In this document: positions 24,440 through 58,935 of the stretch, piece after piece
How positions within the stretch are numbered: position 1 is the first letter of the stretch
How the letters are laid out: each line of letters opens with the position of its first letter
Assembly (NCBI GenBank): GCA_965242865.1
Contig: CBDETK010000013.1
Location: forward strand, 4,576,001-4,640,000
Direction: 5' to 3'
Length of the DNA: 64,000 bases
DNA from: Candidatus Latescibacterota bacterium
Lineage (GTDB): Bacteria > Latescibacterota > UBA2968 > UBA8231
The notes under the pieces: model-generated
Seen by the model: only the letters and a program-made list of their open reading frames with translations
Databases searched by the model: none
Told to the model about the DNA's origin: nothing
Position numbers and translations under genes: made by a program

Positions 24440-24462
24440 TAGTAGCGTCCTGCTGTTTTCCT

Positions 24463-24505
24463 AATTTTAAGGAGAGGGGGAATGCTTCCTCCTCTCCTTA
24501 AAATT
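24463..24505 (+). terminator. Strong intergenic stem-loop (terminator or mRNA stabiliser)
   Basis: AATTTTAAGGAGAGG...CCTCTCCTTAAAATT, perfect 15-bp stem. Confidence 0.7.
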
Positions 24506-24613
24506 ATCTTGTGGCTATCGCATAACGTAGATAGCTACCTTCCTCGCGTCATAATACCTCGCTCCTGTTTGCCCATGCTGAGATCCGGGCAAATTCTACC
24601 GGGGAGTAACGGA

Positions 24614-27085: not shown

Positions 27086-27119
27086 CCTTAGCTGAAGCGC
27101 AAAAAAGAAAGGAAATGCT

Positions 27120-30100: not shown

Positions 30101-30461
30101 TTCGACAGCGCGGGTCAGCCTGATGGACTTGCCGGGGTCATTGATCCAAGATGTGGGCATGGCGTCGGTCTTTACGCCCAATGGCGACGGAGTCAACGAC
30201 CAACTCTTGGTGCATTTCGTCTTATTGAAGGTACAGGAGGAACGGCCATTAGAAGTCGCGTTTTACGATTTGGGCGGGCGTTTGGTGGGCCAAGGGCAGA
30301 GCGCGGCGACCGGCGGCAAGGTCGGGATGCAGGCATTCGTCTGGGACGGGCGAGATATGGGTGGACAGGTCGTACCGCCGGGGCTCTACCTCTGTCAGAT
30401 CAAGGTGGAGGCCGACGACCGGGACAGCGAGTTGACGCGGCTGGTACACGTGGCCTATTGA
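27120..30461 (+). CDS. Large exported protein with discoidin-like motifs, Asp-rich repeats and FlgD-Ig/CHU_C-like tail
   Basis: IDGDLSTFW, IDLG; DDDGDGVTDED / DNDGDGLVDED; VFTPNGDGVND...WDGRD...PPGLY. Confidence 0.8.
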   Translation: MKRLLKRPAALFAVLAVFMPNFCLAQTNAYRLFGNSIRVDRASHWENWHYQNDLVANLNVPIRDADIFQVEADGLRPTFFRRNINVAPTAVDFTYPDLVRANGDLVSGGVTAKSNDALANNVIDGDLSTFWEPDTPVSFARRLTRPRDFNLDGLRNWEIEIDLGRLVFADSLTIIFPAGQFEGEFLGEPIKSFALFASMGERFPFPLGNNLKFSLIGRVSTGFVAGKLAQCVRDESSGYAGETRCEGGGGGESGEVTLVPMPGTEGRYVQMTFPLWPLDRADWDLNGLPDINGAFIQYVRVKATGSDLWRDSFLGAGEEARLAYEALPQEQRGAIVYQRQTAGGLLVELQSDDDLTAEEKYQNLLVEKRGSILYYSKEVPRIAEVQVWAKGDNYALQPERRGGASFENGGLGAPNLATDGLYDSEWVANTWSPVYLKGTAWYDLGAVFWVDNVSVVNKRINQSHQGAFLGPDILVSDGTLLKPVSMNDRDDFPQLEEALKWDNIISEEHVDNHTPVVRIFRETFLRRKIRFLQIRDIDITGHQSGRYGSLATLGEIQLYGEGYPVSVWAYSPPITQTDSRGNFIRKTLPRIAWEGDVIVRDTDPSTGQAIERIEPLNLHPDVRLQIQTRTSDQTDTNFTYYQVVTVAGSEEREEVSKEVYDEIALEWTAWEIWQTLPSSQRHASRKDDDGDGVTDEDPIDLIDNDGDGLVDEDGKKLRRAPRSSFDKDGELAFVGWSEWSESYLPTNGVNEATITSPNPRKFLQVRVNISSEDPFKTARIRSLRVELAPPLALELAGELALLSDEGATRIPSDLGVQASDYTPPRDVDPLAPQQFAYFIRAATPDPTDSTVRDGFDEVLVVAPRDVRLTGVRLGQVAISQTSSFLNPEEVVTSATTTEFHRAFAPGDDGVFRAEDGLVLDRMATGADSIWVRFPFSLNADLPTGQHTLIEVQFESQSFREGIEFTSFVRSSDSDEGVFQRVDTADKDATELVDSSTARVSLMDLPGSLIQDVGMASVFTPNGDGVNDQLLVHFVLLKVQEERPLEVAFYDLGGRLVGQGQSAATGGKVGMQAFVWDGRDMGGQVVPPGLYLCQIKVEADDRDSELTRLVHVAY

Positions 30462-30509
30462 TACCGGCAGGAGTTCGGACCGGAATTTCGACAACAAGGG
30501 AGGGTCTTT

Positions 30510-33260
30510 GTGAACATAGTTAAGAGTTTCCGCACCGGTTCGGTGGCGATCTTGATGTTGGGAGTGATGGTGGAAAACCTCCCAGCCCAGGAGGATTTCG
30601 GCTCGCGCTTGGGTGTGCGCCGCGGCGGGGAGGTGTTCTACGATCCCACCGGGCCGGGGGTGCTTTTTGACGCCCTGGATCCAGCGGTGAAGAAGTGGTA
30701 TGTCCCCCAGGAACTTTTCAATGAATACCAGTGGCGGCAACAGGACTATACCAATTACGCCCGCCGACATTATCAGCGCTTTGTGAACACCAACCAAGAA
30801 GGCGAATACTTCTACGATCTCTACGGGAATTACATCACCCGCGGCGAACTCATTTACGACTGGAGCATTGCAGCACCGCAGACATCGGGTAGCAGCCTGT
30901 TTAAGGCCGCCCGATTCAGTAGCTGGTTTTCAAATTTGGTCATCGCCTCGGACCAGAAGGGCCAATACGCCTATGCCCTGACTATTGGCGACCGCATTCG
31001 CACGACGCTTACGCCGATGACCTTTTCCAAGCCGACCTTTGCCGGTATTCAGTTCGACTTGGCCACGGATAAATACGAGGCGACTTTTCTCTTCTCGCGT
31101 CCTAGTGCTCCTGGGCAAGTCGAAACAGCGCAGACGACTAGCACGGGTCGTTACCGTTCGAACGACACCAACTTAATCGGTGGCCGCGGCACCATGCAGG
31201 TCGGCGACTTTGTCAAGTTTGGCGCGACGTATATCAATGCTTTCAACTCCTCAACTAAGGGGCAGGCATTTCAGGGCAACCCCTTCAAGGGTACGCTCAC
31301 CGAGGGCCAGAACAACGCCGACGTTTCGCGTATCGAAGTGCGGTTGAGCGACGATTCGCCCGAGGACAACATCGCCGGCGCGGCCTTCTTTCAGGAGGAG
31401 ATGATCATTACGACCATCGATGGCGAGCGCATCAGCAACCGCCGCCGCATTGGCAACAACAATATCCTCGACTTCGCCCCAGCGGTGCAGGGCGGCTTCC
31501 GTCGCGAAGGGTTCCTTGCGGCCGATGGCAATGAGGTCATCGTGCTGTTGTACGACCTCGAAGGTCCGCAGTACCGCAATTCCTTCGGTCCCCAACCCGA
31601 GCAGATCAAGAGCATTGAGTTCCTGTTGCTCTTGGCCAACGACTACCGGATTGACGTTACCTCCAACCGCCAACTCAACGCCAACGGTCAGCCGGTTTTG
31701 CTCTCTGAGGGCATTCCCGAACGCACGGTGCGCGCCGACGGCAATGTGCAGGATGGCTCGAATCAGAGCTTTGTGCGCGTCAAATACGGGTTGCCGGTGG
31801 CCAATGAGATCTTTGGCTTTACGCTCGACATTACGGACGTCAGCGGGTTTTACTTCTCGGGGGAATACGACCGCAACCGCCTGCACTTTCGCTATCCGCG
31901 GCGGTCAGAAACCGACGTGACCCAGCACAAGGCGCACAGTACCTCGGCCGACGCTTGGTTTTTCAACGTGTATAAGCGGGCGTATCCCTACTACGGCTTT
32001 GGTGAAGTCTATAGCGTCGATCCCGCCTACAGCACCAGTTCCTTTCTAGCCGGCACCCAAAACGACGCAGCCGATATCAACTACGACGATGACCTCCGTT
32101 TTGTGTACGAATTCGTTGATGACAACGACGACCAAGACCGCAACCCCGACTGGCAGCGGGCCAATTTCTCGCAGGATAGGAAAATTTTCCCCGGGTTCGA
32201 CGAAAACAACGATTTCATTAACGACTTCAATCAGAATGACTCCGAGGATCGCTGGAATACGGTGCCAGACTACGAGGAGCCTTTTCTCCGCTACGCCTCG
32301 GATCGGCCCGAATTCCTCTTTGGAGTCGATATGAACAACAACGGCATCGTCGACCGCTTTGAAAACGACATTCTGCCCGACTACCTATACAAACGGGATC
32401 GGCGCGGATACAACATCTACGTGGGGTCTCATTTGGGGCCAGAGGCGCGGCTGACCGTTGGGCGCCTCGACGAGCGCCAGCTAGCCGACGCCCGCGAAAA
32501 CGTCACCAATTACGCCTTGCTGACCTTTGACAAGGACTACGCCAGCAAGGGGCGCGTGCAAGTGTACAACAACTATCGAAGAGTCCAAGACAATATTCGC
32601 GACGACGTGATTGAATGGGTGGTGCGCGAGGGGTCGCGCGGCGACTTAGTGCCCTATACCGATCTCCTGCCCCTGCGCGATGGTTGGGCCAATACCCTGT
32701 ACTTGGGCTATCAATACCAGAGCGACCGCATCCACTTCAAAAACCGCGCTAAGTGGGAGGTTTTCAAGCAATCCAATTTCGCCGACCGCCCCATTGAGGA
32801 GCAGGACATCCGCGAGACCGCTTCCTTCTTTGGGATCCTCAATAAGGTTGATTACACGTTTGACCTCGGCGTCCTCAAGCTGCAGCCGCGCTGGAAGAGC
32901 GAGTTCCAGCGCCAGCGGCCATCGCGCCGCGAAGATACGCAGGTGCGGTTGGCTACTACGGAATTGCGCGAGCTCTGGTCTTTGGTCGTGCGCGTACCCA
33001 TCTTGGCGCGCACCGAATTGCAGACCGGCCTAGAGTACCTGCTCGTCGAGCAGTTCCGCGAGGATCTGGAAACCCACTTGCTGCGCTCGGATCGCAACGA
33101 GATGGTCTTTGCCCTGCAGTTTACCAACAATGCCGAATACCTAGGCTATAATCTGTGGACCCAGACCGGGTTCCGCGTGTCGCGGATCGATCGCGCCTCG
33201 GCCGAAAGGACGCGCACCGAAACAGCCATGTTCGTCACCGTGTTCGCTGGCTTAGAGTAG
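30510..33260 (+). CDS. Large uncharacterised exported, probably outer-membrane beta-barrel, protein
   Basis: 916 aa; signal peptide; aromatic-rich amphipathic strands; DENND and DMNNNG loops. Confidence 0.7.
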   Translation: MNIVKSFRTGSVAILMLGVMVENLPAQEDFGSRLGVRRGGEVFYDPTGPGVLFDALDPAVKKWYVPQELFNEYQWRQQDYTNYARRHYQRFVNTNQEGEYFYDLYGNYITRGELIYDWSIAAPQTSGSSLFKAARFSSWFSNLVIASDQKGQYAYALTIGDRIRTTLTPMTFSKPTFAGIQFDLATDKYEATFLFSRPSAPGQVETAQTTSTGRYRSNDTNLIGGRGTMQVGDFVKFGATYINAFNSSTKGQAFQGNPFKGTLTEGQNNADVSRIEVRLSDDSPEDNIAGAAFFQEEMIITTIDGERISNRRRIGNNNILDFAPAVQGGFRREGFLAADGNEVIVLLYDLEGPQYRNSFGPQPEQIKSIEFLLLLANDYRIDVTSNRQLNANGQPVLLSEGIPERTVRADGNVQDGSNQSFVRVKYGLPVANEIFGFTLDITDVSGFYFSGEYDRNRLHFRYPRRSETDVTQHKAHSTSADAWFFNVYKRAYPYYGFGEVYSVDPAYSTSSFLAGTQNDAADINYDDDLRFVYEFVDDNDDQDRNPDWQRANFSQDRKIFPGFDENNDFINDFNQNDSEDRWNTVPDYEEPFLRYASDRPEFLFGVDMNNNGIVDRFENDILPDYLYKRDRRGYNIYVGSHLGPEARLTVGRLDERQLADARENVTNYALLTFDKDYASKGRVQVYNNYRRVQDNIRDDVIEWVVREGSRGDLVPYTDLLPLRDGWANTLYLGYQYQSDRIHFKNRAKWEVFKQSNFADRPIEEQDIRETASFFGILNKVDYTFDLGVLKLQPRWKSEFQRQRPSRREDTQVRLATTELRELWSLVVRVPILARTELQTGLEYLLVEQFREDLETHLLRSDRNEMVFALQFTNNAEYLGYNLWTQTGFRVSRIDRASAERTRTETAMFVTVFAGLE

Positions 33261-47340: not shown

Positions 47341-49995
47341 TCAATAGACCAGCGAGAGGGTACCCGTATAGGCCGTGGAGGTCGCGTCCGAATCTGCGAC
47401 GAGCCGGTAGAGATAGATCCCCGGCGGTGCGAGTTGGCCGTGGCTTGCGCGGCCATCCCACTTAATTTGGACGTTGCTCGCGGGCGAGCCGCCGGTGTGT
47501 ATCTCGGCGATGGAGCGGCCGGACAGGTCGTAGATGGTGACGTGAACGTTAACCGGCTCTAAGAGGCGGACGAGATCAAAGGAAAAGATCGCCTCGTCGT
47601 TGATGCCATCGCCGTTGGGGGTAAAGGGGTTGGGAATGATACGGGGCGCCTCGATGAGCTGATTGATCTCGTCGGCGACCACGAGGCGGGCGTTGGTGGC
47701 TATGTCCGGGGTGGCGTCTCCATCTTCGGTCGGCTGGGGGATAAATTCGACGTCGTGGCCGCTCTGGTCGTTCCACACCGTGCTGACGAACTCTTCTGAG
47801 CCGCGGAAGAGCTTGGAACGAAAGACGATTTCGATGTTTTCCCCGAGTTGGAAATGCTCCGCGCCCATTGTGGGCAGCTTGATGTGTAGCTTGGACGAGC
47901 CGGTGAGCGGGTCGGAAATTAGGCTCTGAGCGAATTGCCCGAGGCTGTCGGAGCGGCCCGCGGCTGGAGCGAGGCGGCTGGGACGAACATCGCGCAGCGG
48001 ATCGGCGGCCGTGCCAGCCGCGATTTCGACCCAATCTTGGCCGTCAAAGCGCAAGGTGTCGATGCGCGTGTCGGCACTGGGCACGGCGATCTCGATGCGG
48101 TTGAAGGAGGTGGCCTCGCCCGTTTTGAAGAATGGCCGGACAAAGTAGCGGAAAGCAGTCTCCTCGCCCAAGGTGACGTACGGGGGAAAAATTTCGGCGA
48201 CGATCCCGCCCGAGACCAGCGGCGCGTCGTAGTCGAACTCGATGAAGTCCAACCGGGCCGCGCTGTGCTGGGCGGAATCAAAGAAGATGCGGAACTGGAT
48301 GTAGCGAGTGCCGCCGGGCAGAGGCAGCTGGACGCCGGCGTTTTGCCACTCGGATTCGGGCAAGCTCTCGTCGATAAGCCCGTCTTCGAGCTTGAACGGT
48401 GCCGACCAGAAGCTCCAGCCCAAGAGGCCGTCGTCGCCTAGGTCAACCCCTAGCTCGTTGTACTGAAGCTCGTGTTCGGGGACGCGGCCTTCGGGGAGCT
48501 TGATCCAAGAAAATAGGTCGAGGGGTACGCCGTTTTCGTCTTGGGTGTCGGAGAGGCCCGGGCCTAAGCGGCGGGCGTATATGTGGGTGTCGAGGGTGTT
48601 GCCAACGCGGAACTGGATGCGGACATCGCTGTCGCGGCTGTCCCGACGCCCGCGCCAACGGACCTTGCCCCAGTTGACTTGGCCGCCGGCCACATCAAAG
48701 GGAAACTGGCTTTCATACCCAGCGCGATCCGAGCCGGCGAACTGCTCAATCTCTCGGTCGTAGCGACGAATGCGCGGGGTGGGTGTGCCCACGTCAATGA
48801 TCGCCGAGGTGTACCGTGCGTCGATGGCGTAGCCGTCGCCGAAATAGCTAGCTTCGGCGGTCTCCACGTAGGTGCCTTTGGGATCAATCGAGACTATGTC
48901 GAGGCGGCCGGCGACAAAGGGCAGTCCGAATCGGATATCCTTGACTACCGGATTGAACTGGCCGTTGATGACAGGGACTAATGTTTTGCTCGCTTGGATA
49001 GTTTCGGAGCGGCTGTCGATGGTGGTGGGGTCTCCATAGCGGATGAAGTAGTTGGCAATAGTGGTGGCGGGCAAGGTCGGCCGTGGACGGAAGACAATGC
49101 GATTGAGATAGTAGTAGCCCATCAGGTTGATGCCGACTCCGCCGCGGCCGTAAAGGGCGGAGCCGTATTCGGTACGCAGGTTGCCGTCAACCGACTTTTC
49201 TGCATCGACTCGACCGATTACCTGCGCGGTCGACCAGTAGTCTGCCGAAATCGGGTCAGCTATTTCACGGCGGAAGCCGTATTCGCTCGGCACCACCATA
49301 AAGGGGCGCTGAGGAGTCTTACCGGGGATGATGCCGCCGAACTCGCCGATCTTGAAGCGCTGGTTGAGCAGGTAGGCGAGGTTTCGCAGGCTGTCCAAAT
49401 GCACCGGCCTAATCCAAGAGGTAACTCCCCCACCGTGTTCGGGCAGTGGCGGGTCTTCATCGATCAGCCCGTCGTTGTCGTCGTCGAGAGCATTGACCGG
49501 ATCTTCGTTGAGCAGTCCGTCCCAGTCGTCGTCAAAAGGAGAATACAACCCGTCCTCATTGAGCAGCCCATCGCCGTCATTATCGAACTGAGGATCCGGC
49601 CCATCCTCGTCGATGCGCCCGTCGAGGTCGTTGTCGAAAAATTCCGGGGGGTCTTCGTCGATGAGGCCGTCGCCATCGTCGTCGCGCCCGTTGGCTGGGT
49701 CTTCGTTGATCTGGCCGTCGTCGTCATTGTCAACTTGTGGGTCTATGGGGTCTTCGTTGATCTGGCCGTCGTCATCGTTGTCGACTAGCTCGACCGGGTC
49801 TTCGTCGATGCGCCCGTCGCCATCGTCGTCGGCGATCAACTCGACAGCCCAGCTACGGCCCAAGTCGAGACGACCTGTGACCGGCCGCAGGGTCCAAGGA
49901 TGCACATCGTCGCCGATGCGCCACCGCTTGATTTCGGCGTAGCCGTTGCTGAGTATAGACGCGACGCCGAGTGCCGCTACCAACAACCTGATCAT
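47341..49995 (-). CDS. Large exported protein with 8 Asp-rich repeats and FlgD-Ig/CHU_C-like tail
   Basis: Signal peptide, GGAGG RBS; PNPFTPNGDGIND...WDGR...PPGIY...LVY. Confidence 0.85.
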   Translation of the reverse strand: MIRLLVAALGVASILSNGYAEIKRWRIGDDVHPWTLRPVTGRLDLGRSWAVELIADDDGDGRIDEDPVELVDNDDDGQINEDPIDPQVDNDDDGQINEDPANGRDDDGDGLIDEDPPEFFDNDLDGRIDEDGPDPQFDNDGDGLLNEDGLYSPFDDDWDGLLNEDPVNALDDDNDGLIDEDPPLPEHGGGVTSWIRPVHLDSLRNLAYLLNQRFKIGEFGGIIPGKTPQRPFMVVPSEYGFRREIADPISADYWSTAQVIGRVDAEKSVDGNLRTEYGSALYGRGGVGINLMGYYYLNRIVFRPRPTLPATTIANYFIRYGDPTTIDSRSETIQASKTLVPVINGQFNPVVKDIRFGLPFVAGRLDIVSIDPKGTYVETAEASYFGDGYAIDARYTSAIIDVGTPTPRIRRYDREIEQFAGSDRAGYESQFPFDVAGGQVNWGKVRWRGRRDSRDSDVRIQFRVGNTLDTHIYARRLGPGLSDTQDENGVPLDLFSWIKLPEGRVPEHELQYNELGVDLGDDGLLGWSFWSAPFKLEDGLIDESLPESEWQNAGVQLPLPGGTRYIQFRIFFDSAQHSAARLDFIEFDYDAPLVSGGIVAEIFPPYVTLGEETAFRYFVRPFFKTGEATSFNRIEIAVPSADTRIDTLRFDGQDWVEIAAGTAADPLRDVRPSRLAPAAGRSDSLGQFAQSLISDPLTGSSKLHIKLPTMGAEHFQLGENIEIVFRSKLFRGSEEFVSTVWNDQSGHDVEFIPQPTEDGDATPDIATNARLVVADEINQLIEAPRIIPNPFTPNGDGINDEAIFSFDLVRLLEPVNVHVTIYDLSGRSIAEIHTGGSPASNVQIKWDGRASHGQLAPPGIYLYRLVADSDATSTAYTGTLSLVY
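49451..49830 (-). repeat. Coding tandem repeat D-x-D-x-D-G-x-x-[DN]-E-D, 8 copies
   Basis: DDDGDGRIDEDP, DNDDDGQINEDP x2, DDDGDGLIDEDP, DNDLDGRIDEDG, DNDGDGLLNEDG, DDDWDGLLNEDP, DDDNDGLIDEDP. Confidence 0.85.
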
Positions 49996-50349
49996 CGAAC
50001 ACCTCCGCGCAAGAATGTGAGCCCTTGGCTGCCTGCGACGAGGAGAACAAGGACGCCGACGGGGCTACAGACTCCAAAACTTAGTCCGCACCGGCCGGGT
50101 TAATCACGCATTTCGTTTGCTATTCTATTATATAGTATATTGGTGAACATCTCAAGATAGTCGGATCGGGCCGCTGATCCTAGAAAAGAGGAGCCTTTGT
50201 CGTCAATCGCTTAGATAATTAGTGGAGTTGAGGCGCAGATGAAGGGACTTGCAGCGACTTACGCGGGGGTTGAATAGACCTAACTTATTGTTATTCATTG
50301 ACTTTATTCGTTATAGGCTCGTTGTTTCCACCGCTATCTTTAATATATC

Positions 50350-50378
50350 TTGACACGTCTTAGGCCATTGATTATCAT
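50350..50378 (+). promoter_or_regulatory. Near-consensus sigma70 promoter for the 50394-58935 operon
   Basis: TTGACA-17 nt-TATCAT in an AT-rich divergent intergenic region. Confidence 0.75.
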
Positions 50379-50393
50379 ACAACCCGATAATAA

Positions 50394-51365
50394 TTGAAAG
50401 CCATCAAAACGAATGAGAAGGGGTCGGCTGAGGTGCTGGTCGCGTTTGTTTTTTTAGGGCTGATGCTATGGATGACAGTAGGCTCAGTTAAACCGGCTCT
50501 GGCGCATTATCCCGCAGGAGTGGCCTACAGAGCTTTTCAATTTCCCGACCACTTGGTCCCCGCCATTGACGGAGACTTGAAAGATTGGGAAGTTGTAGGC
50601 GACTCTTACGTCGTATTAACGGATCAGTTTCACGATCTAATTAGTCCAGAAGTTGAGGCGAGTGATTCGGATGATTTTGCTGCTCGTCTCATGGTAGGGT
50701 GGAACAAAGCGGAGAACAGAATTTACATAGCCGCTCAGGTCCGCGATGATATACACCAAATCGATCGTCCCGCTGGCAGTGCTACGATGCTTTTCCAAGA
50801 CGACGCGATGGAATTGTTTATTGACGCGGACCACTCAGGTGGACAATTTGCGAATTTCACCGAGTTGAGCCACGAAGAGCAGAGGCGGCGCAACGGGGCT
50901 GAGGCCAACCATTTCGTTTTGGCTGGCCCGCCGCCCGACGAGGATTTTTTCGTCAACTTTTCCGCCGCCGCTTGGTACGCGCTACCCGATGGCCCCTATT
51001 CCGGCGCGGCGGTCGAGTTTATCGGTGTCTTGGGAGGAGAGGGCGTGACGAATTACGAAGTCATGCTCGTGCCATTTGATCGGGTCGATATCAATGCGGT
51101 CTTTCAAAGCGAAGAGCATATCTTGCAAGAAAATGAAATCCTTGGTTTTAACGTAGAGTTTAACGACTTCGACGTGCATTCAGAGCTTTTTGACGCTAAA
51201 TGGTCGCTTTCGGGCCAACACAATTCTTATCGCTTTTCCGATCGCTTTACCGACTTGATCCTAATGCCACTAGAGGGTACTTTTACGGCTGTGGAGCCGA
51301 GGTCTTGGGGGCGTTTGAAAGCCTCTTTGCACACAGAGCAGTACCATCAAGGAGTTTCTGAATGA
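50394..51365 (+). CDS. Exported CBM9/DOMON-like protein, paralog of 23543, with WGxxK motif (true start possibly 50433)
   Basis: PAIDGDLKDW, VGWN, QDDAMELFIDADHSGG; AVEPRSWGRLKASL. Confidence 0.78.
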   Translation: MKAIKTNEKGSAEVLVAFVFLGLMLWMTVGSVKPALAHYPAGVAYRAFQFPDHLVPAIDGDLKDWEVVGDSYVVLTDQFHDLISPEVEASDSDDFAARLMVGWNKAENRIYIAAQVRDDIHQIDRPAGSATMLFQDDAMELFIDADHSGGQFANFTELSHEEQRRRNGAEANHFVLAGPPPDEDFFVNFSAAAWYALPDGPYSGAAVEFIGVLGGEGVTNYEVMLVPFDRVDINAVFQSEEHILQENEILGFNVEFNDFDVHSELFDAKWSLSGQHNSYRFSDRFTDLILMPLEGTFTAVEPRSWGRLKASLHTEQYHQGVSE

Positions 51366-52111
51366 TGAGTCCCACACGAGTATTATTATTCTTGGCCTTG
51401 GTTATCGGCTCGGGTGTGCTAGGCTGTGGATATAGCTATTACACGGGGCCATTGCAGCCCGGCCAAGATCAGGCCTCGTTGATCAGCGTGGCAGATGACG
51501 GGACCTTGACCTTTGCCCAAGATCGTTTTGAAGTGCGACTTAAGCCGATGACCGATGAAGAATTGAATCGCCAGTTTTTCAATAATTCCCAAGCAGGTCC
51601 TAAGTCCACAAACCCCTATACCTTTGGCAACACGGTATTTTGGGGGACGGATAAAGAAAAACAGCGATTTACCGTCTTCCGTCTCAGCGTTAAGAATTAC
51701 GCCTACCCCAAAGTCAGAATTGATCCGAGCAAAATCGTCGTCAAAGCGAGCAATAATCGCGAGTATTGGAGCCTCAACTTTGAGCAGCTCGACACGTATT
51801 ATCGCGCCTATGCCATAGGTTATAGAGGCAATGAATATGCCCGCTACCAAGAACGTCGCGACTTGCTGCGGCGGACGATGCTCAAAGACGAGGAGATCTT
51901 CAGCGGTCAAGAGACGGAGGGCTTCGTTGTTTTCCCCGTGCTCCACCCCGACGTGAGTGATATCGAAGTCCAAGTGCTCAATGTAATCCTGCGATTTGAC
52001 TTTCGCAACGAGCCGGTGGAGACCACCAATATTTCCTATAAATTCGTCCGAGATATCGGCAAAGTTTACAAGGACGGCACGGTCGTCCCTAGAGTTGCTA
52101 AGGCAAACTAG
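51362..52111 (+). CDS. Lipoprotein, paralog of 33271..34029
   Basis: Lipobox VLGC; shared motifs PMTDEELNRQF, NPYTFGN, QRFTVFRL, RFDF. Confidence 0.8.
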   Translation: MMSPTRVLLFLALVIGSGVLGCGYSYYTGPLQPGQDQASLISVADDGTLTFAQDRFEVRLKPMTDEELNRQFFNNSQAGPKSTNPYTFGNTVFWGTDKEKQRFTVFRLSVKNYAYPKVRIDPSKIVVKASNNREYWSLNFEQLDTYYRAYAIGYRGNEYARYQERRDLLRRTMLKDEEIFSGQETEGFVVFPVLHPDVSDIEVQVLNVILRFDFRNEPVETTNISYKFVRDIGKVYKDGTVVPRVAKAN

Positions 52112-52154
52112 CCTTTAAGCCTTTAAGCGAGATTACCAAGGAGGAGTTGGCATT

Positions 52155-53117
52155 ATGAAATCTCTGAAAATGCTTAGTGTTTTAGTCGGCTTGCTGTTAG
52201 TCGCCCAATCAAGCGAAGGGGTTGTGAACATTCAGAATGTCGGTTCGGGTGCTCGGGCGCAGGGGTTGGGCAACAGCTTCGTGGCGGTGGCAGACAATGC
52301 GGATGCCGTGTTTGCCAACCCGGCGGGGTTGGGTCAGGTGTCGGGTCGTCAGGTTTCCTACACGAACGTGTCGCTGTTGTATGTGGGAATTGACGGCAAT
52401 GATCTGGGGCAACACGTGGTTTCGTACGCGCAGCCGCTGGGCGACAAGCTGGGGCTGGGGTTGGGCTATGAGCGGATCGGCTCGTCGCTGATGAGCGAGA
52501 ACGGGGCGTTTGTGTCGGTGTCGTATCAGGTGCAGCGTCGGCTGCAGGTGGGGGTGTCGGCCAAGTATTTGTTTTGGAGTGTCGGCGCGATTCCCCCCGA
52601 TCCCGATAATGGGCGGGAGGATCCGGTATCAAACAAGAGCGCGGGCAATGTGGGCTTGGATTTGGGGTTGTTGTGGCAGAGTCCGGTGGCTGGGGCGCAG
52701 GTGGGGGTGTTGTTGAAGAACATCAATCAGCCGAATGTGAAGTGGGGCGAGGTCAAAGACGCCAGCGGCCAGGTGGATTCGGATGCGGGTGGGTTGCCGA
52801 TGGATGTGCATATTGGAGTGGGCTATCGTCTGAGCAGCCAGTCGTTGGTGTCGGTTCAGTATGTGCGTCACGATGCGACGGGGGATGGTTCGGACAACAG
52901 GGTGGTGGTTGGGGGGGAGACGCAGTTGTTGGAGGGGCTGGTGTTGCGTGCGGGGGGTCGTCGCTTGCTGTCGGATTCAGAGGATTCGGGTGCGGGCTTG
53001 AACGCGGGGTTGGGGTATCAGTGGAACCAGTTGGTATTCGATTATGCCTATGACATCGGCTTGGAGTTGACCGATACCAATGGAGCGCACCGGTTCTCCT
53101 TTGCCTACGAATTCTAA
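52155..53117 (+). CDS. PorV/PorQ (FadL-like) family outer-membrane protein
   Basis: GARAQGLGNSFVAVADNADAVFANPAGL, DLG, NINQP, LRAG, FDYAY, HRFSFAYEF. Confidence 0.85.
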   Translation: MKSLKMLSVLVGLLLVAQSSEGVVNIQNVGSGARAQGLGNSFVAVADNADAVFANPAGLGQVSGRQVSYTNVSLLYVGIDGNDLGQHVVSYAQPLGDKLGLGLGYERIGSSLMSENGAFVSVSYQVQRRLQVGVSAKYLFWSVGAIPPDPDNGREDPVSNKSAGNVGLDLGLLWQSPVAGAQVGVLLKNINQPNVKWGEVKDASGQVDSDAGGLPMDVHIGVGYRLSSQSLVSVQYVRHDATGDGSDNRVVVGGETQLLEGLVLRAGGRRLLSDSEDSGAGLNAGLGYQWNQLVFDYAYDIGLELTDTNGAHRFSFAYEF

Positions 53118-53170
53118 AACCAAAAAGCCCCCGATGAACTCCAAATTAGTATAGACAAGGAGATGCACAA

Positions 53171-56100
53171 ATGACGGTCTGGGCCGGACTTATCGCGCTG
53201 GGATTGGGGCTAGGAGCTAGCCTTTTTCTGCCGGTGCCGCAAAATCTGAAGACCAGTTTTGACGCCGGACAATCTCTCTATGCCCTTGGCGAGTTTGAAG
53301 GGGCGATCATTGAGTATTCAAAGATCGTCAAGTTTGATAGCAGGGCCGTGCGCACCGATAGTGTACGGGTGATGTTTGGCAACGACTTGGAATTACCCGT
53401 AGTCGCGGCGGCTTGGTATCAGCTAGGCAATGCTTACAAAAAGAGCGGACAGCACGAAAAAGCGGTGGAGGCCTACCGCCAAGTTATTGATGTAGGGAGC
53501 GTGGCCGAGGATTTCAAGTCGTTAGTGCAGTTCCAAGTCGCCGAGACCCGCTTCCTCGCCAAAGAGTACGGCGAGGCCGCAAAGGAATACAAGCGCTATG
53601 TCGAGTTGTTTCCCGAAACGAAGGAAGCCGGCAAGGCGTATTTTTACGCGGGCTGGAGCGAGTTTAATACCAAAGAATACGACCAGTCCATCGAAACGCT
53701 CAACGGCATGTTGGCGGCTTATCCGCAAGATCGCTACGCGCCGGATTCTCAGTTCCGCATCGCCAGTGCGCTTTATGAGAAGGGCGATTACGCCCAAGCC
53801 GTTGAGATGACCCAGGTAGTCCTCGACAAGTATCCCAATAGTCCGGTCATTGCCCAAGCCCTCTATCTGAAGGCCAATGCCTATGACCAGATGGGGCGCG
53901 ACGCGGAGGCGATTAAAGCCTACCGCGATGTGCGCGACCTCTACGACCGGATGTTTGAACTCTTGCGCGGCTCGTTCCGCGAGGGTAAGAACGTCGATTT
54001 TGAAAACTATCGACAGCTTTTTGAGACCTCCTCATTGCGCGTCGCTGAGATTTTCCGTAAAACAGACCAGTTTGAGGAAGCCTATCAAGAGTTGATCGCG
54101 GCCCAAGAAACCGCTGAGGAGCGCTTTTATAAGGCCAAGGTGCAGATGAGAATCGGCGACAACTACATGGAGTGGAATAAGTTCGACGAGGCATGGACCG
54201 CTTATAACCAAGTGATCGAACTCTACGGGGATACGCCGTACCCACCTAACGCTCAGTATCAGAAAGGCGAAGCTAAATACTTCGCCGGAGACTACGCGGC
54301 TGCCCGTGAAGACTACCTCCAACTGTTGGAAGACTACCCGGACAGCGATACGGGTTTGCGCTCCGCAGCACTCTACAGCGCAGGTTGGTCCGCTGAGAAA
54401 TTCGGCGGGGTGGACCAAGCTATCGCAAGCTATACGCAAGCAGTGGACAACTTCCCCCGCTCCGATCAAGCTCCGTTGTGCTTGTTGCGCATTGCTCGGC
54501 TCAGCTACGAGCAGCAGAAAGTCGATGAGGCCATTGAAGCCTACAAGGCCATAACGGAGAGCTATCAGGATACGCGGCATACGGCTGATGCGTACTATGG
54601 CCTTGGTATTCTCTACCGCGACGAGGATCGGAAAGACGAGGCCGTTGCTGCTTTTTCCAAAGTGGACCGCGACGCCCGCGAGACGTACATCGCCGCGCTG
54701 ATTGAGGCGGCCAATATCTATATTTCCCAAGATCGCACTGCCGAGGGGCGTGCGTTGCTCAATCAATTGCTGGAAGGTGTAACCGGCGACCGCGACTTGG
54801 AGGCTAGGGCCCATTTCCAGATGGCCCAACTCGACCTCAACAACAAAAACTACGTCGACGCAGTCGAGCGTTACAGCTTGGTGCTTGAAGAATACCCAGA
54901 GAGCGATGTCATTCGCGATACCCGCTACGGTCGTGCATTGGCCTATCACTATTCGGGCCGCTACGACCGTGCGCTGGTCGATTACAAGTGGCTATTGGAC
55001 ACCAAAATTCCCAAGGCTATGCAGCTAAAGGTCACGTTCTCAATGGCCCTCTCGTACTCTGCGGAAGGCAACGACGAAGAGGCCGAGAAGCTGCTAAACG
55101 AAGTCGTTGCTTCAGGGGACGAGAGCTTGGTGCGTTCGGCGAGGTTGCAGCTGATCTCAATGGCCGAAAAGAAGGGCAATCCAGAGGAAGCCGTACATAT
55201 CTACGAGGAGATGTTGGCTACTACTACCTCTAGCGAAGACCGGGAGCGTTTACTCATTCGCTTGGCCAATGCCTACTTCAAATTGGATAAGTTTCAACAG
55301 AGCATTGATGCGGCTCAGGAGCTAATTGACTTGGCCATCAATGCCGAGAGCATTGCCAACGCACTCTTCGTCCAAGGCAACTGCTTCTATAAGTCGGAGC
55401 AATTCGTCCAAGCGATTGCTACTTATAACACCATTATCGAAAATTACCCGCAGATTGCTTGGGCCAGAAACGCTCAGTTCCAGATCGGCGTAGCGTATAA
55501 CAGGCTATCGGCCAACGGCAATGTCGAAGTACTTCCAGCCATGTCAAAGGCGTTCAATGCCTATTACACTCAATATCCCGAAGATGACCGCGCGGTGCAT
55601 GCCTACTACTACGATGCTTGGGCGCATTATCGGATGGGTAAATGGCGCGCTGCCAGCGATATTTTTGCCAGCCTAGCAAATAAGTATCCTCAGTCTCGCT
55701 ATGCCTCTGAGGCACTCTTTCGCGCTGGTGATGCCCTGTTTAACATGACCAACCGGAGCGGCGCAGAGAACAAAAACCAGAACTTCCTAGACGCCATGGT
55801 TTTCTACAACCGCATCATTAAGGGCTATCCTAGGTCGAGTCATGTGGACGACGCGCTTTACAACAAGGCTTGGTGCCTGATCAACCTTGACCGGAAGGAA
55901 GAGGCAGTGCCCGTCTTCGAGCGCATCGTTGCGGATCATTCCGATGGGACTTATGGGGCACGCAGCCAATTTACGCTCGGAGATTACTATTACGGCCTCA
56001 AGGACTATGAGAAGGCCACCGAGAGCTACCAAGCTTTCTTGGAGCGCTTTCCCGCTGATAAGCTGATTGCCCAAGATCGAGTGCTGCCCAAAAAGGCGAG

Positions 56101-56416
56101 AACCCTGCTCGGGCATTTGGCTGAGATCGATGCCTACAATCTTTATGCAACGGGCGAAAAGCTCTTAGCTGAGAAGAACTACGACGAGGCCATGGCGATT
56201 TTCAAGGAGGTGCAGCAGAAGTACCCCAAGAGCGACCAAGCTGTCAACTCGCTGGTCAACATCGGTGCTGCCTATATGGCCCAAGAGGAATTCCGCCAAG
56301 CCGGTGCTGTCTTTCAGGAGGTCGTCGATAACTATGGCGACAGTCCCAAGTACAGGACGCAGGTGGATTATGCCAGAGAGCAGCTAGAGGTAATGCAGGA
56401 AGCTCGCGTCCTATAA
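53171..56416 (+). CDS. Very large TPR protein (BamD/CpoB-type repeats)
   Basis: 1081 aa; repeated YPxS..A.aqf.ig units; N-terminal TM or signal sequence. Confidence 0.88.
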   Translation: MTVWAGLIALGLGLGASLFLPVPQNLKTSFDAGQSLYALGEFEGAIIEYSKIVKFDSRAVRTDSVRVMFGNDLELPVVAAAWYQLGNAYKKSGQHEKAVEAYRQVIDVGSVAEDFKSLVQFQVAETRFLAKEYGEAAKEYKRYVELFPETKEAGKAYFYAGWSEFNTKEYDQSIETLNGMLAAYPQDRYAPDSQFRIASALYEKGDYAQAVEMTQVVLDKYPNSPVIAQALYLKANAYDQMGRDAEAIKAYRDVRDLYDRMFELLRGSFREGKNVDFENYRQLFETSSLRVAEIFRKTDQFEEAYQELIAAQETAEERFYKAKVQMRIGDNYMEWNKFDEAWTAYNQVIELYGDTPYPPNAQYQKGEAKYFAGDYAAAREDYLQLLEDYPDSDTGLRSAALYSAGWSAEKFGGVDQAIASYTQAVDNFPRSDQAPLCLLRIARLSYEQQKVDEAIEAYKAITESYQDTRHTADAYYGLGILYRDEDRKDEAVAAFSKVDRDARETYIAALIEAANIYISQDRTAEGRALLNQLLEGVTGDRDLEARAHFQMAQLDLNNKNYVDAVERYSLVLEEYPESDVIRDTRYGRALAYHYSGRYDRALVDYKWLLDTKIPKAMQLKVTFSMALSYSAEGNDEEAEKLLNEVVASGDESLVRSARLQLISMAEKKGNPEEAVHIYEEMLATTTSSEDRERLLIRLANAYFKLDKFQQSIDAAQELIDLAINAESIANALFVQGNCFYKSEQFVQAIATYNTIIENYPQIAWARNAQFQIGVAYNRLSANGNVEVLPAMSKAFNAYYTQYPEDDRAVHAYYYDAWAHYRMGKWRAASDIFASLANKYPQSRYASEALFRAGDALFNMTNRSGAENKNQNFLDAMVFYNRIIKGYPRSSHVDDALYNKAWCLINLDRKEEAVPVFERIVADHSDGTYGARSQFTLGDYYYGLKDYEKATESYQAFLERFPADKLIAQDRVLPKKARTLLGHLAEIDAYNLYATGEKLLAEKNYDEAMAIFKEVQQKYPKSDQAVNSLVNIGAAYMAQEEFRQAGAVFQEVVDNYGDSPKYRTQVDYAREQLEVMQEARVL

Positions 56417-56454
56417 CGTTGATTTCTTTGCGTCCTAACTTAAGGAGGAAAAAA

Positions 56455-57108
56455 ATGATTGAACTTTTTCGAGAAGGCGGACCTTTCATGTATCCTTTGG
56501 GGCTCTGGTCTATGCTTTCCATTGCGTTCTTTCTCGAGCGCATCTGGACTTATGCCCGGCTGCGCTCCGAGGATGAGTTGGCCGAAATCACCAACGATGT
56601 CAATGCGCGTATAGACTCGGGTGCTTCCATTGACCAACTCAAGGAGTACTGCTCCGAGGTCGGCAAGCTGGAAGGTGAGGTGTACGGCGAGGGGCTAGAG
56701 CGCTTTGAGCATTTGTCGCGCGAGCAGCGCACGATGGAGGAGATGCGCGAGGAAATGAACGGCACGGTTGAACGCGCCGCCTTGGGATACCTCGAACGGT
56801 ATCTGGCCGTTATTGACTTCGTCTCCAAATCCGTGGTGTTGCTCGGCCTGCTGGGTACGGTCAATGGTATGATCAATGCGTTTGAAGGTATTGCGGAAAA
56901 GGGTCTCGGTGAGCCGACGATCGTGGCCGCAGGTATCTCCGAAGCACTGATCACCACAGTTACCGGGCTGGTGATCGCCGTGCCTTCAATTGCTATCTTC
57001 ACGTACTTTAGCAACCGCGCCACAGGCAAGGCCGTTGAGTTTGAAGCATACGGCCACGGTTTTGTGGACGCCCTGCTGCGTCGCTGGCAAGGCACTCAGG
57101 CTGCCTAA
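56455..57108 (+). CDS. exbB: MotA/TolQ/ExbB proton-channel family protein
   Basis: GGPFMYPL, LLGLLGTVNGMI, GISEALITTVTGLVIAVP; AAGGAGG RBS. Confidence 0.9.
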   Translation: MIELFREGGPFMYPLGLWSMLSIAFFLERIWTYARLRSEDELAEITNDVNARIDSGASIDQLKEYCSEVGKLEGEVYGEGLERFEHLSREQRTMEEMREEMNGTVERAALGYLERYLAVIDFVSKSVVLLGLLGTVNGMINAFEGIAEKGLGEPTIVAAGISEALITTVTGLVIAVPSIAIFTYFSNRATGKAVEFEAYGHGFVDALLRRWQGTQAA

Positions 57109-57141
57109 AGGCAGCTCTTCCTTTAAGGAGGGATGAGATAG

Positions 57142-57549
57142 ATGGCTCAGAGAGTAGATAAAAAAGAACTGACCATGCCCGACCTGACGCCGATGATCGA
57201 CGTGGTCTTTCAGCTACTCATCTTCTTCATGGTGACTGCTGTGTTCGCCATTACTCCAGGTTTGGACATCAAACTGCCCGAGGCCGAAGAAGCGCAGGCT
57301 CCGGAGAAGGAGAACCTTTTTATCGTCGTGGATCAGGACGGGAACATGAAGCTGAACCACAAATCGGTGACCTTTGCGACCCTCAAAGAGGAACTGCAGG
57401 CCAAGAGGCAGCTACTAGACAACACCACGATGATTATCATCCAAGGCGACGAGCGTTCCACGCACGGACAGATCGTCCAGATCATGGATATTGCTCGCCA
57501 AGTGGGCGTTGTTGATCAGGTCATCGCCACGGAACCGCAGCGCAACTAG
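57142..57549 (+). CDS. exbD: ExbD/TolR family protein
   Basis: LTPMIDVVFQLLIFFMV with the conserved TM Asp; IQGD. Confidence 0.92.
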   Translation: MAQRVDKKELTMPDLTPMIDVVFQLLIFFMVTAVFAITPGLDIKLPEAEEAQAPEKENLFIVVDQDGNMKLNHKSVTFATLKEELQAKRQLLDNTTMIIIQGDERSTHGQIVQIMDIARQVGVVDQVIATEPQRN

Positions 57550-57573
57550 GTCCTTCCAAGAGGGGGAAGAACT

Positions 57574-58935
57574 GTGGTAGACGAGTATAAAAAATCAGTA
57601 CAGGCCCAGCGCCAAAAAACGGCCTATATAGCGGTCGGCGCGGCCCTTTTTATTCACGTACTTTTCATCCTATCTAAGTGGGTGGTGATCGCGGCTGGCT
57701 TGGCGGGTGCCGGGGTGCTGTTATACGCCCTATATACGGCAACCACTGGCCGCCGGCTAAGCATGAGCGTGGCCTTTGTGCTCTCGGTCGCCATTCACGC
57801 TGGCGTCTTCGTTTATGATTATCTCTTTGGCATTGGCGAAGAACAGCAAAAAGAGGAGCTAATAATTTTCCGCGCTCCTCCGCCGATTCTCGAAAAGAAC
57901 TTCGACTTAGCCAAGCGTCCCGAGATATCCGAAGTGCAGATGGAGATGCTACAGTCGATGGCACCGCCGGATTTGTCGCAGGATATATCGGCGATAGCCG
58001 ATGTTAGCGCGGTAGGTAGCGACCTCCTGAGTTCGGTTTTGCCTGGTACGCAGGTTTTAGGGGCCTTCTCAGGGGCCAAGGCCGAGGAGTTGGCCTTTGA
58101 CGAGGTCGCGATGATCGAGCTGGCTGAAACGTCGGCGCCGGTGCAAGAGGCCCTGAGTCTGAGGCACGAATTGCTCAATGTCGGCGACTTGGACATTGGT
58201 CGCTACCAAGCGATCTTGATTCACGATCCAGACAACAAACGCAATATTCGCGGCTTCTTTAACATGACGGTCATCGACTACGACATCGCAGACAAGAACC
58301 GAGATCGGTTCCCAACAGCGGTAGAGGAGTTGATGCGCTATATGCGCGACCATACCCAAATCAATGCCCGCATTGAGGGCACGACCTTGGAGTTTTCGGA
58401 TCCGCGCATCATGGACGCCCCCATGATTTACGTGACGGGATGGGATGCCGTCTTGCAAATCAGCGATACAGAGAAGACCAACTTGGGTGAATATCTCAAG
58501 AACGGTGGTTTTCTCTATGCCGAGGAAATTCGCCATAGCGACGCTGAGAACCAGCTTGAAGGCAAAGAAGCCGGGGTTTCAGGTACGCCGTTTGACCGCC
58601 AATTCAAGGCAACAATGAAAGATCCGCTGGTGCTGGGTAGCGACGGCTCTAAGTGGCAGAAAGTGCCCAAGAGTCACCCGCTGTACTACAGTTTCTGGGA
58701 TTTTCCCGATGGCCCACCCATGGGCGGTGCCCCCGGTGGCAATGTGTTCGACTTGGAGATGCTGGAGTTGCGCGGTCGGGTGGCGGTGGTTTTCAGCGAC
58801 CTGAATATTAGTTGGTATTGGGGTGATCCGCTGGCCGATGCCCGAGAGCGCGGGTTGCAGTTCGGGGTCAACCTAATCGTCTATGCGTTGACCCAGCCGG
58901 GCGGCATCGCCAACGTGACTCAGTTTACCCAATAG
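57574..58935 (+). CDS. Membrane-anchored DUF4159-like protein with a TonB-like SxxxH helix
   Basis: LSVAIHAGV TM helix, PPP linker; PMIYVTG, NLGEYLKNGGFLYA, HPLY, GRVAVVFS, FGVNLIVYALT. Confidence 0.75.
   Translation: MVDEYKKSVQAQRQKTAYIAVGAALFIHVLFILSKWVVIAAGLAGAGVLLYALYTATTGRRLSMSVAFVLSVAIHAGVFVYDYLFGIGEEQQKEELIIFRAPPPILEKNFDLAKRPEISEVQMEMLQSMAPPDLSQDISAIADVSAVGSDLLSSVLPGTQVLGAFSGAKAEELAFDEVAMIELAETSAPVQEALSLRHELLNVGDLDIGRYQAILIHDPDNKRNIRGFFNMTVIDYDIADKNRDRFPTAVEELMRYMRDHTQINARIEGTTLEFSDPRIMDAPMIYVTGWDAVLQISDTEKTNLGEYLKNGGFLYAEEIRHSDAENQLEGKEAGVSGTPFDRQFKATMKDPLVLGSDGSKWQKVPKSHPLYYSFWDFPDGPPMGGAPGGNVFDLEMLELRGRVAVVFSDLNISWYWGDPLADARERGLQFGVNLIVYALTQPGGIANVTQFTQ

Follow-up and report, generated by a model that had tools for sequence, protein, structure and literature searches.

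A PorV/PorP-superfamily barrel linked to an ExbBD-type motor and a DUF4159 protein in Latescibacterota: a possible energy chain for carriers of T9SS-type tailed proteins

What could join an outer-membrane barrel of the kind that carries proteins in type IX secretion (the T9SS) to a proton motor of the kind that usually serves nutrient uptake? The question is raised by a seven-gene operon at positions 50,394 to 58,935 of a 64,000-nucleotide stretch of DNA (the window) from a Candidatus Latescibacterota bacterium (assembly GCA_965242865.1, contig CBDETK010000013.1, positions 4,576,001 to 4,640,000 of the forward strand), which lies next to a divergent gene for a large protein with a T9SS-type tail. 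Our analysis suggests that this cluster, which is kept throughout an uncultured phylum, brings the two together, and thereby represents a previously undescribed way of powering the surface display of large proteins. We propose, with about even confidence, that in Latescibacterota an energy chain of the Ton/Tol type, driven by the proton motive force, has been hard-wired to a carrier of the PorV/PorP type that serves tailed surface proteins. The main basis of this proposal is computed: gene order and its conservation, the families and folds of the parts, an invariant His in an anchor helix together with an invariant Asp in ExbD, and a model of the barrel bound to the tail.

The operon, the carrier barrel and the tailed protein

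The open reading frames (ORFs) of the operon and the divergent gene are as follows:

50394..51365, + strand: ORF1, 323-aa secreted CBM9/DOMON-like protein (CBM9-like match) with the C-terminal tag ...PRSWGRLKASLH... (C-terminal motif)
51362..52111, + strand: ORF2, 249-aa lipoprotein of no known family, with a GCGY lipobox; usually directly 5' of a barrel
52155..53117, + strand: ORF3, 320-aa 14-strand outer-membrane barrel of the PorV/PorQ/PorP-SprF superfamily, the proposed carrier (profiles, fold, complex model)
53171..56416, + strand: ORF4, 1081-aa periplasmic tetratricopeptide repeat (TPR) protein with CpoB/YbgF-type and BamD-type TPR units and an N-terminal signal or anchor without lipobox
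56419..57108, + strand: ORF5, 229-aa ExbB/TolQ-type stator subunit (MotA_ExbB)
57142..57549, + strand: ORF6, 135-aa ExbD/TolR-type subunit with transmembrane Asp20 (ExbD)
57574..58935, + strand: ORF7, 453 aa, N-terminal hydrophobic segments, anchor helix and DUF4159 head (residues 235-439; DUF4159 89.5 bits)
47341..49995, - strand: secreted protein of 884 aa, divergent from the operon, that ends in a C-terminal domain of the T9SS type (coded 47344-47673); the proposed cargo

The seven ORFs follow one another with intergenic gaps of -4, 43, 53, 2, 33 and 24 bp, between a 398-bp AT-rich divergent region on one side and a convergent aroA on the other. The original prediction had drawn the operon in just this way, and its coordinates of all the ORFs and its labels of ORF2-ORF7 are, with some qualifications, confirmed here, with the exception of its description of ORF1 as a tailed, cargo-like protein. 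The sole family match of ORF1 is CBM9-like (24.8 bits), family scans find no T9SS C-terminal domain (CTD) in it, and its C-terminus is the short motif SWGRLK; because it has no CTD and carries this separate short tag, we do not regard ORF1 as CTD cargo. The divergent gene does encode the predicted CHU_C/FlgD tail, with both Pfam domains above their cut-offs (CHU_C 34.1 > 27, FlgD_ig 33.2 > 27) at the C-terminus of the 884-aa protein. Also as predicted, no domain of PorK, PorL, PorM, PorN or SprA was recognized by Pfam scans (E <= 0.01 and 1e-4) of the 42 window ORFs of at least 100 aa, and the same scans yielded no match to GldL or GldM. The lipobox of ORF2, G-C-G-Y, is invariant among its homologues, and an ORF2-like gene adjoins a barrel in loci L027, L030, L035, L037, L038 and L045 (numbering explained below) as well as in close relatives; Pfam offers no relative of ORF2 and a profile search of the PDB no convincing one, the best match (a phage portal, E 0.011) being taken as chance. 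We also considered an anti-phage defence motor, of the Zorya type or other, and rejected it: none of the seven operon proteins matches PADLOC at E <= 1e-3.

The barrel encoded by ORF3 passes the Pfam PorP_SprF model (36.2 bits, cut-off 22.3) and stays below the NCBIfam cut-offs for the PorV/PorQ family (76.8 < 90) and for T9SS_PorP_fam (45 < 90.55); the window copy gives no match to NCBIfam T9SS_OM_PorV. When 26 members of the barrel family were compared with NCBIfam at E <= 1e-3, all 26 matched the PorV/PorQ model, 25 'PorV2', 22 PorQ, 19 PorP/SprF and 14 PorV, and at the same threshold Pfam PorP_SprF matched 11/26. By these matches, and by the fold and profile results that follow, the ORF3 family belongs to the PorV/PorQ/PorP superfamily and is not an orthologue of any of its named members. 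The weak matches of 25/26 barrel relatives to NCBIfam NF052325 'PorVQ2' ('putative type IX sorting system protein PorV2') suggest that curators already recognize a second PorV-like lineage.

AlphaFold2, run on the 26-sequence alignment, predicts ORF3 as a confident 14-strand barrel (pLDDT 85.9), which in Foldseek superposes most tightly on PorV chains (8gl6_F with TM-score 0.73 and a root-mean-square deviation (rmsd) of 4.4 A, and 6h3i_F with 0.68 and 5.4 A). If the Foldseek results are ranked by E-value, the FadL, TodX and CymD channels are at the top (5e-12), but the rmsd of FadL and CymD exceeds 7 A. A search of the PDB with the profile of the barrel family places PorV 6h3i_F first (E 2.6e-13), followed by the next best match at 2.8e-4, with FadL homologues at 0.086. 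The PorV/PorQ-family barrel of the original prediction is supported by profile and by fold, with a score below the NCBIfam family cut-off. ORF3 shares with PorV the 14-strand FadL-type architecture, and differs from it in length (320 aa vs about 400) and in sequence (about 15% identity). It ends in ...RFSFAYEF, with no C-terminal tail, and contains no cysteine. The Pfam Toluene_X model matches six of the 26 family members at E <= 1e-3, the window barrel not being among them.

The tail of the 884-aa protein, scored against curated cut-offs, passes CHU_C (39.7 > 27) and the type A model (24.8 > 23). Twelve tails from the window and the loci share the pattern PNPFTPNGDG-IND ... IYDLSGR ... WDGRD..G..PPGIY ... 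LSLVY*, which we take to be type B-like; at E <= 0.01 each of the twelve matches CHU_C and aligns with the entire type B model, and nine match the type A model partially. A complex of the mature ORF3 barrel with the 110-aa tail was modelled with a score of 0.88, against 0.01 for the best of three controls; the mark used for such scores is reached by 116/157 solved complexes and 2/215 mismatched pairs, and is a rough one here, since our own alignments were used. At least 92% of the contacts agree between runs, the pLDDT of the partner is at least 77, and the modelled interface sets the conserved tail motifs (residues 13-25, 48-54, 73-88 and 101-110) against residues spread along the barrel. The model supports the view that the ORF3 barrel may bind the T9SS-type tail, and ORF3 is the divergent neighbour of the tailed gene in the window and in 14 close loci.

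The motor, the transducer and the conservation of the core

ORF4 matches TIGR02795 (the CpoB/YbgF model) with 299.5 bits over 10 stretches; its homologues are 1072-1074 aa long in L030, L034 and L048, and E-values across the distant loci range from 1e-277 to 0. ORF5 matches MotA_ExbB (81.7 bits), and its best NCBIfam match, TolQ, scores 77.6, far below the cut-off of 221; there is no GldL among its matches. ORF6 is a member of the ExbD family, with TolR as the best NCBIfam match (67.9 < 127.3), and its transmembrane Asp20 is invariant in 11/11 homologues. The motor of the operon is therefore of the TolQR/ExbBD type, and not GldLM. The arrangement is like TonB-ExbB-ExbD and TolQ-TolR-TolA-CpoB in the stator families of the 5:2 type with a transmembrane Asp, in the succession of anchor helix, Pro-rich segment and periplasmic head, and in the CpoB-type TPR units; it is unlike them in that the operon contains no TonB_C, TolA domain III, TonB-dependent receptor, TolB or Pal, and misses all equivalog cut-offs.

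TolA and TonB grip their motors via an anchor helix with a Ser-His-Leu-Ser (SHLS) motif, just after which follows a beta-strand 'motor box' (PMC12204202, from which we take the definitions of both). Among nine homologues of ORF7, the N-terminal hydrophobic region is variable and is missing in the distant members, and the conserved anchor helix reads S71-x3-H75, with His75 invariant in 9/9 and Ser at -4 in 8/9. The helix gives way to a block of strong conservation, F99-x-A-P-P-P-I-L-x-K-x-F-[DE]-L-x-[KR]-R-P-E-[IL]-S-E-V-Q-M-[EQ], from which a linker leads to the DUF4159 head; the stretch [IV]-x-F-x-x-P-P-P-I-[LM], in which F99 is invariant, lies about 20 residues past His75, at the location of the TolA/TonB motor box. 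By the spacing of E. coli TonB, its Leu and Ser positions presumably correspond to Asp82 and Gly86 of ORF7. DUF4159 is the sole Pfam domain of ORF7 (E <= 0.01), with no TonB_C, TolA domain III or VWA family, and the only convincing solved relative of this head is the uncharacterized 4i66_A (E 2e-10). ORF7 starts 24 bp 3' of exbD, an order that recurs in 21 loci, L027 with its exchanged motor among them. At the level of sequence, these features suggest that ORF7 is a TonB/TolA-like third component with a non-TonB head, a role that had been overlooked in the original prediction.

The conservation of the operon was assessed in 77 loci (numbered L001 onward) fetched with an 11-sequence barrel alignment, by comparing the window proteins with all locus ORFs in phmmer at E <= 1e-5. 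The core of barrel, TPR protein, ExbB, ExbD and DUF4159 protein is complete in the window and in 21/77 loci. In 14 close loci the barrel is 84-91% identical, and ORF1, ORF2, the tailed gene and aroA are also present; in the seven distant ones (L027, L028, L030, L034, L046, L047 and L048) barrel identity goes from 57% down to 32%, and ORF1 is absent. Two further partial cores, in L040 and L062, are interrupted by contig ends. Every complete chromosome in the set (15/15) carries exactly one full operon, and the retention of the core in 21/77 loci, including these chromosomes, indicates that the linkage of barrel and motor is more than chance. In L046/L047 the barrel is the least conserved part of the core (E 1e-32, vs 1e-277 for the TPR protein, 1e-79 for ExbB, 1e-57 for ExbD and 1e-124 for ORF7). 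In L027 the operon's own motor has been replaced by a different ExbB-ExbD-ExbD set (5726-7344; 24-29% identity to ORF6), with the barrel, the TPR protein and ORF7 kept, and the ORF7 of this locus has a single anchor helix only; L030 has a second barrel after ORF7. According to a quick IQ-TREE calculation for 74 barrel ORFs (fragments <750 nt dropped), a single clade (support 100) unites the 49 Latescibacterota barrels, and its deepest split separates two groups that both include operon-linked barrels.

The barrel also has relatives beyond the phylum, at 24-30% identity, in Elusimicrobiota, Rhodothermota, Ignavibacteriota, Cloacimonadota and others; the operon is absent there, with the exception of L065 from an unclassified bacterium. 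This locus encodes an FlgD_ig-tailed 958-aa protein, a PorV-family barrel (PF19572 30.3 > 27), an unknown 590-aa protein, ExbB, ExbD, ExbD and a TonB_C protein; it starts with a TonB-dependent-receptor-like gene, which could be the real Ton client there. In Cloacimonadota (L074), an FlgD_ig-tailed gene lies directly upstream of the barrel.

The original prediction had proposed a T9SS-related machinery powered by ExbBD, had named a lack of conserved exbBD-porV linkage, together with a complete canonical T9SS elsewhere that accounts for the cargo, as the outcome that would speak against it, and had called for a model of the PorV-tail complex. The linkage turns out to be kept across Latescibacterota, the complex scores as given above, and together with the PorV-related barrel and the tailed giants these results support the prediction in part; ORF1, however, is not CTD cargo.

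Close relatives of the barrel (81-98% identity) are very numerous, and the related loci from genome collections are titled Candidatus Latescibacterota. The barrel P0056, 85% identical to that of the window, is labelled Gemmatimonadota by its source, and this label disagrees with the Latescibacterota titles of the chromosomes that carry the same operon (among loci L001-L032). Each complete chromosome has a second locus (L011-L018, L020-L024, L001) with a recent barrel duplicate of 79-87% identity in a housekeeping context, and in L001, L016 and L020 an additional barrel, more divergent in sequence, stands in tandem. In L031 (6791-13447), a pair of barrel paralogues alternates with two DDE transposase genes of identical Pfam scores, which suggests transposon-mediated duplication.

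Proposed mechanism and competing explanations

In the mechanism that we propose, the operon would encode an envelope-spanning module driven by the proton motive force and specific to Latescibacterota. In the inner membrane, the ExbB/ExbD (TolQR-type) stator would pair with ORF7 as a TonB/TolA-like force transducer, in which the DUF4159 head would replace the usual C-terminal domain. The 1081-aa TPR protein ORF4 would form a scaffold in the periplasm, and in the outer membrane the ORF3 barrel with its partner lipoprotein ORF2 would carry or anchor giant T9SS-tailed surface proteins, e.g. the 884-aa protein. The module might give mechanical energy to complexes of carrier and cargo, either for their release from the translocon or for their movement or holding on the surface; in Bacteroidota, such complexes are energized by GldLM/PorLM through GldKN/PorKN (PMC12635249). 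The coupling of ORF7 to the motor, a contact of ORF7 or ORF4 with the barrel side, the use made of the energy and the identity of the translocon are what we infer beyond the computed results.

According to studies of Flavobacterium and Porphyromonas, type A cargo uses PorV, and every type B cargo has a PorP/SprF-like carrier of its own, often linked to it in the genome, that stays bound; ejection of the carrier-cargo complex from the SprA translocon needs the energy of GldLM/PorLM, passed via GldKN/PorKN, which are disulfide-linked to SprF and PorG (PMC12635249, PMC9143113, PMC12618676). PorP, moreover, is described in a complex with the TPR-containing PorE (PMC9143113). The Latescibacterota operon resembles type B carriers such as SprB-SprF of Flavobacterium or PG1035-PorP-PorE of P. 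gingivalis in that a barrel of the PorV/PorP superfamily is encoded beside giants with CHU_C-type tails and is modelled to bind a tail, and in that the barrel comes with a periplasmic partner that contains TPRs (PorE in those systems, ORF4 in this one). It differs from them in that the window contains no GldLM/PorLM, GldKN/PorKN or SprA and the barrel is hard-wired to an ExbBD-type motor, in the absence from ORF3 of the SprF C-tail Cys-x-Cys, in the barrel scores below the NCBIfam PorP and PorV cut-offs, and in a tail that stands between types A and B.

The closest precedent for the right half of the operon is, by analogy, the class of TPR-tolQ-tolR-vWA force transducers described in 2025, in which TPR, tolQ, tolR and tolR genes precede that of a transducer with an SHLS anchor and a head (vWA) other than that of TonB (PMC12204202). 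The original prediction had not taken this class into account. As far as that description goes, ORF4-ORF7 share with this class the order of TPR, tolQ-like, tolR-like and anchored transducer genes, the S-x3-H helix, the conserved block after it, and a head that is neither TonB nor TolA; they differ in the DUF4159 head, in the single tolR-like gene instead of a heterologous pair, and in the attached barrel, lipoprotein and T9SS-type cargo. The main text and supplement of PMC12204202 contain no mention of DUF4159. Another FCB bacterium, Fibrobacter succinogenes, has a set of OmpA, TPR, TPR, ExbB, ExbD, ExbD and TonB genes (FSU_2396-FSU_2403), and its TPR and OmpA proteins are reported to occur, together with cellulases that bear CTDs, in a complex at the surface (PMC6851124). 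There the TPR genes FSU_2397/2398 are numbered beside ExbB-ExbD-ExbD-TonB (FSU_2400-2403), an adjacency that follows from the locus-tag numbers only; unlike in Latescibacterota, TonB is canonical, a PorV-like barrel is not reported in the consulted portion of that article, and its authors read the Ton genes as serving cellodextrin uptake (PMC6851124).

As to the distribution of T9SS, the survey of Abby et al. (2016), in the portion cited here, finds it only in Bacteroidetes, and two reviews, as excerpted, place it only generally in the 'FCB superphylum'. Our literature search found no paper that joins Latescibacter* with T9SS or 'type IX secretion' (Williams 2021 has T9SS only in its reference list); it found DUF4159 only in the Pfam database paper, and PorV, ExbB and TPR together only in unrelated papers. 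In Bacteroidota, the route by which energy reaches carrier-cargo complexes is an active question, for which work from 2025 invokes disulfide links to a moving GldK/PorK track (PMC12635249). If our proposal is true, the principle of carrier plus tail can run on a different energy chain in a sister phylum, which bears on the evolution of T9SS; DUF4159 would acquire its first functional context, and non-TonB force transducers their first candidate client.

Several observations weigh against the proposal. The periplasmic C-tail Cys-x-Cys of SprF and its close homologues links them to GldK (PMC12635249), and because ORF3 contains no cysteine, a link of this type to a track is absent. The window tail misses the type B cut-off (30.2 < 35) and only just passes that of type A. 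The good score of the barrel-tail model may partly reflect likeness to a solved complex, since that of PorV with a CTD is available (8gl6). In the distant operon-type loci L030, L034 and L046-L048, there is no tailed gene within the fetched sequence (up to 10 kb each side). ORF7 holds only the S-x3-H half of SHLS, and the canonical TonB of L065 lacks the motif altogether, so the helix motif is suggestive and not diagnostic. Finally, the same chromosomes contain 'solo' barrels in unrelated contexts (adenylylsulfate kinase, amino-acid kinase), which are recent duplicates nested in the group of the window barrel.

The main competitor of our proposal is one that we consider unlikely and yet worth close attention, namely that two separate systems merely neighbour each other: ORF3, with ORF2, would be an ordinary carrier for a canonical T9SS encoded elsewhere, and ORF4-ORF7 would be an autonomous module of TPR protein, TolQR and transducer with another target in the outer membrane or cell wall. 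The right half of the operon could indeed be autonomous, since TPR-tolQ-tolR-transducer modules without a barrel are described in PVC and other phyla (PMC12204202). Apart from the solo copies of the barrel, which have no motor genes, there are also sister barrels accompanied by tailed giants and a 916-aa gene (see below) with no motor genes in the sequence fetched downstream, which covers 10 kb in L037, 6 kb in L035 and, up to the ends of the loci, at most 4 kb in L033 and L038. On the other hand, the adjacency of barrel and TPR genes, 53 bp apart here, is kept in 21 loci and in two more that are cut by contig ends, to either side of the deepest barrel split, despite reshuffling upstream and the motor swap in L027, and L065 repeats the combination of tail, barrel, ExbBD and TonB outside the phylum.

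It is also conceivable, though we find it distinctly improbable, that the operon encodes a machine for gliding or for moving adhesins, in which motor and transducer would drag carrier-adhesin complexes laterally in the outer membrane, by analogy with SprF-SprB on the Bacteroidota track. Agl-Glt of Myxococcus offers a parallel for such lateral dragging of complexes. The candidate cargo proteins are giants (867-1113 aa) of the surface type, the carriers of Flavobacterium are described as staying bound to type B cargo and being moved by the energy chain (PMC12635249), and PMC12204202 suggests that vWA transducers may act in gliding; however, the window scans found no track protein (GldJ/K/N), and the barrel has no cysteine with which to be linked to one.

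Still less probable, in our opinion, is Ton-type import, in which the FadL-fold barrel and the lipoprotein would take up a substrate bound by the CBM9/DOMON-like ORF1, with ExbBD energy delivered via ORF7. The carbohydrate-binding-like domain of ORF1, the usual employment of ExbBD in import, the FadL, TodX and CymD channels at the top of the Foldseek E-value ranking and the Toluene_X matches in the barrel family would fit such a function. However, the profile match to PorV is far above that of FadL homologues, the superposition is much tighter on PorV, the barrel is modelled to bind a tail, and ORF1 is missing from the distant core loci. Moreover, FadL-type channels are not known to be TonB-dependent, which counts against import. 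That the operon is the phylum's equivalent of Tol-Pal, with TolQR, ORF7 as a substitute for TolA and a giant CpoB serving outer-membrane tethering or division, is hardly credible: TolQ and TolR are the best NCBIfam matches of ORF5 and ORF6, ORF4 matches CpoB/YbgF, and a gene for a lipoprotein with PD40 (TolB-like) repeats abuts the cluster in L030 and lies 30 kb upstream of the operon in the window, but the scores against TolQ and TolR miss the equivalog cut-offs by a wide margin, the operon has no Pal/OmpA-like or PD40 gene, and the phylum already has a canonical locus, tolR-tolA-tolB-pal-cpoB being listed for a Latescibacteria metagenome-assembled genome in the supplement of PMC12204202, as far as consulted.

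A linked cluster and a short C-terminal tag

Upstream in the window, between 18.7 and 33.3 kb, a second group of genes for envelope proteins is found:

18743..19918, + strand: PD40 beta-propeller lipoprotein, the orthologue of which (38% identity, E 7e-88) abuts the 228-aa lipoprotein gene in L030
21617..23229, + strand: 228-aa lipoprotein (21617-22303) and 301-aa secreted protein (22324-23229), with homologues directly upstream of the core in L030, L034, L040, L045 and L048
23543..24439, + strand: 298-aa paralogue of ORF1 (29% identity, E 5e-30), ending in the tag ...EESWGRIKAAFE*
24482..30461, + strand: giants of 867 and 1113 aa, both ending in the same tail of T9SS type (tail alignment, tail models)
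30510..33260, + strand: 916-aa secreted protein of no known family, with homologues between tailed giants and an ORF2-like/barrel pair (L033, L037, L038)

Next to a barrel that groups as sister to one set of operon-linked barrels, L033, L037 and L038 encode tailed giants and a homologue of the 916-aa protein (E about 1e-199), with an ORF2-like lipoprotein as well in L037 and L038. Since homologues of these genes adjoin either the core or the sister barrel in distant genomes, ORF1 has a paralogue here and the PD40 gene an orthologue in L030, the operon and the 18.7-33.3 kb region appear to form one functional neighbourhood.

The 916-aa protein contains no cysteine and has a middle part rich in Asp and Asn, and it is very well conserved in distant Latescibacterota (E about 1e-199), although the homologues there are only 43-44% identical to the window copy. 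No named relative was found by Pfam, NCBIfam, the PDB profile search or the Atlas; the Atlas look-alikes are unnamed clusters from Latescibacterota and Gemmatimonadota, and the nearest named one, DUF6029 (0.89), is a lead only. The fold prediction, made on a 4-sequence alignment, is unusable (pLDDT 29.6, pTM 0.29).

The short tag E-x-x-[ST]-W-G-[RK]-[ILV]-K-x-x-[FLY] stands at the ends of small secreted proteins, encoded in the window at 17576-18013, 23543-24439 and 50394-51365, in L045 at 2492-3100 and 7136-8056, and in Cloacimonadota at L074:1-687. A count over the all-frame ORFs of the loci (770,011 residues) gives 19 occurrences no more than 25 residues from a C-terminus and none at internal positions, and no Pfam or NCBIfam model matches the tag. 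Both CBM9/DOMON-like paralogues (50394-51365 and 23543-24439) have a His directly after the likely cleavage site of the signal peptide (A-L-A|H and A-N-A|H), an arrangement that, we presume, resembles proteins that bind metal through an N-terminal His. The unrecognized tag and the conserved 916-aa outer-envelope protein merit study in their own right.

It is tempting to go further and to imagine a self-contained system of secretion and surface display, or of gliding, in Latescibacterota without GldKLMN and perhaps without SprA, although we regard so extended a scenario as speculative and improbable. It would comprise the operon and the 21.6-33.3 kb cluster: PorV-like carriers would pass the giants through the 916-aa family, acting as a new outer-membrane protein, and the Ton-like DUF4159 transducer would pull them free or move them. 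Small accessory proteins would be sorted by a second, so far undescribed signal, [ST]WG[RK][ILV]K, for which the giant TPR protein might be the reader.

The G+C content of 2-kb windows over the operon is 0.50-0.58, vs 0.61-0.65 in the windows on either side, and both envelope clusters (21000-33000 and 50000-58000) stand at 0.50-0.58 against about 0.60-0.67 over most of the window; yet both are anciently conserved in the phylum. Two promoter-like sites lie in the divergent region:

50350..50378, + strand: TTGACA-17-TATCAT, upstream of ORF1 (11/12 matches)
50155-50127, divergent: TTGAGA-17-TATAAT, facing the tailed gene (11/12 matches)

These sites are only suggestive, since a promoter/terminator scan gave five sites in the region vs a shuffle mean of 6.9, i.e. 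no enrichment. The segment 38848-47286, upstream of the tailed gene, encodes FG-GAP/ASPIC and TPR proteins in a row together with a PMT_2-TPR membrane glycosyltransferase, the gene for which keeps this position in all close relatives.

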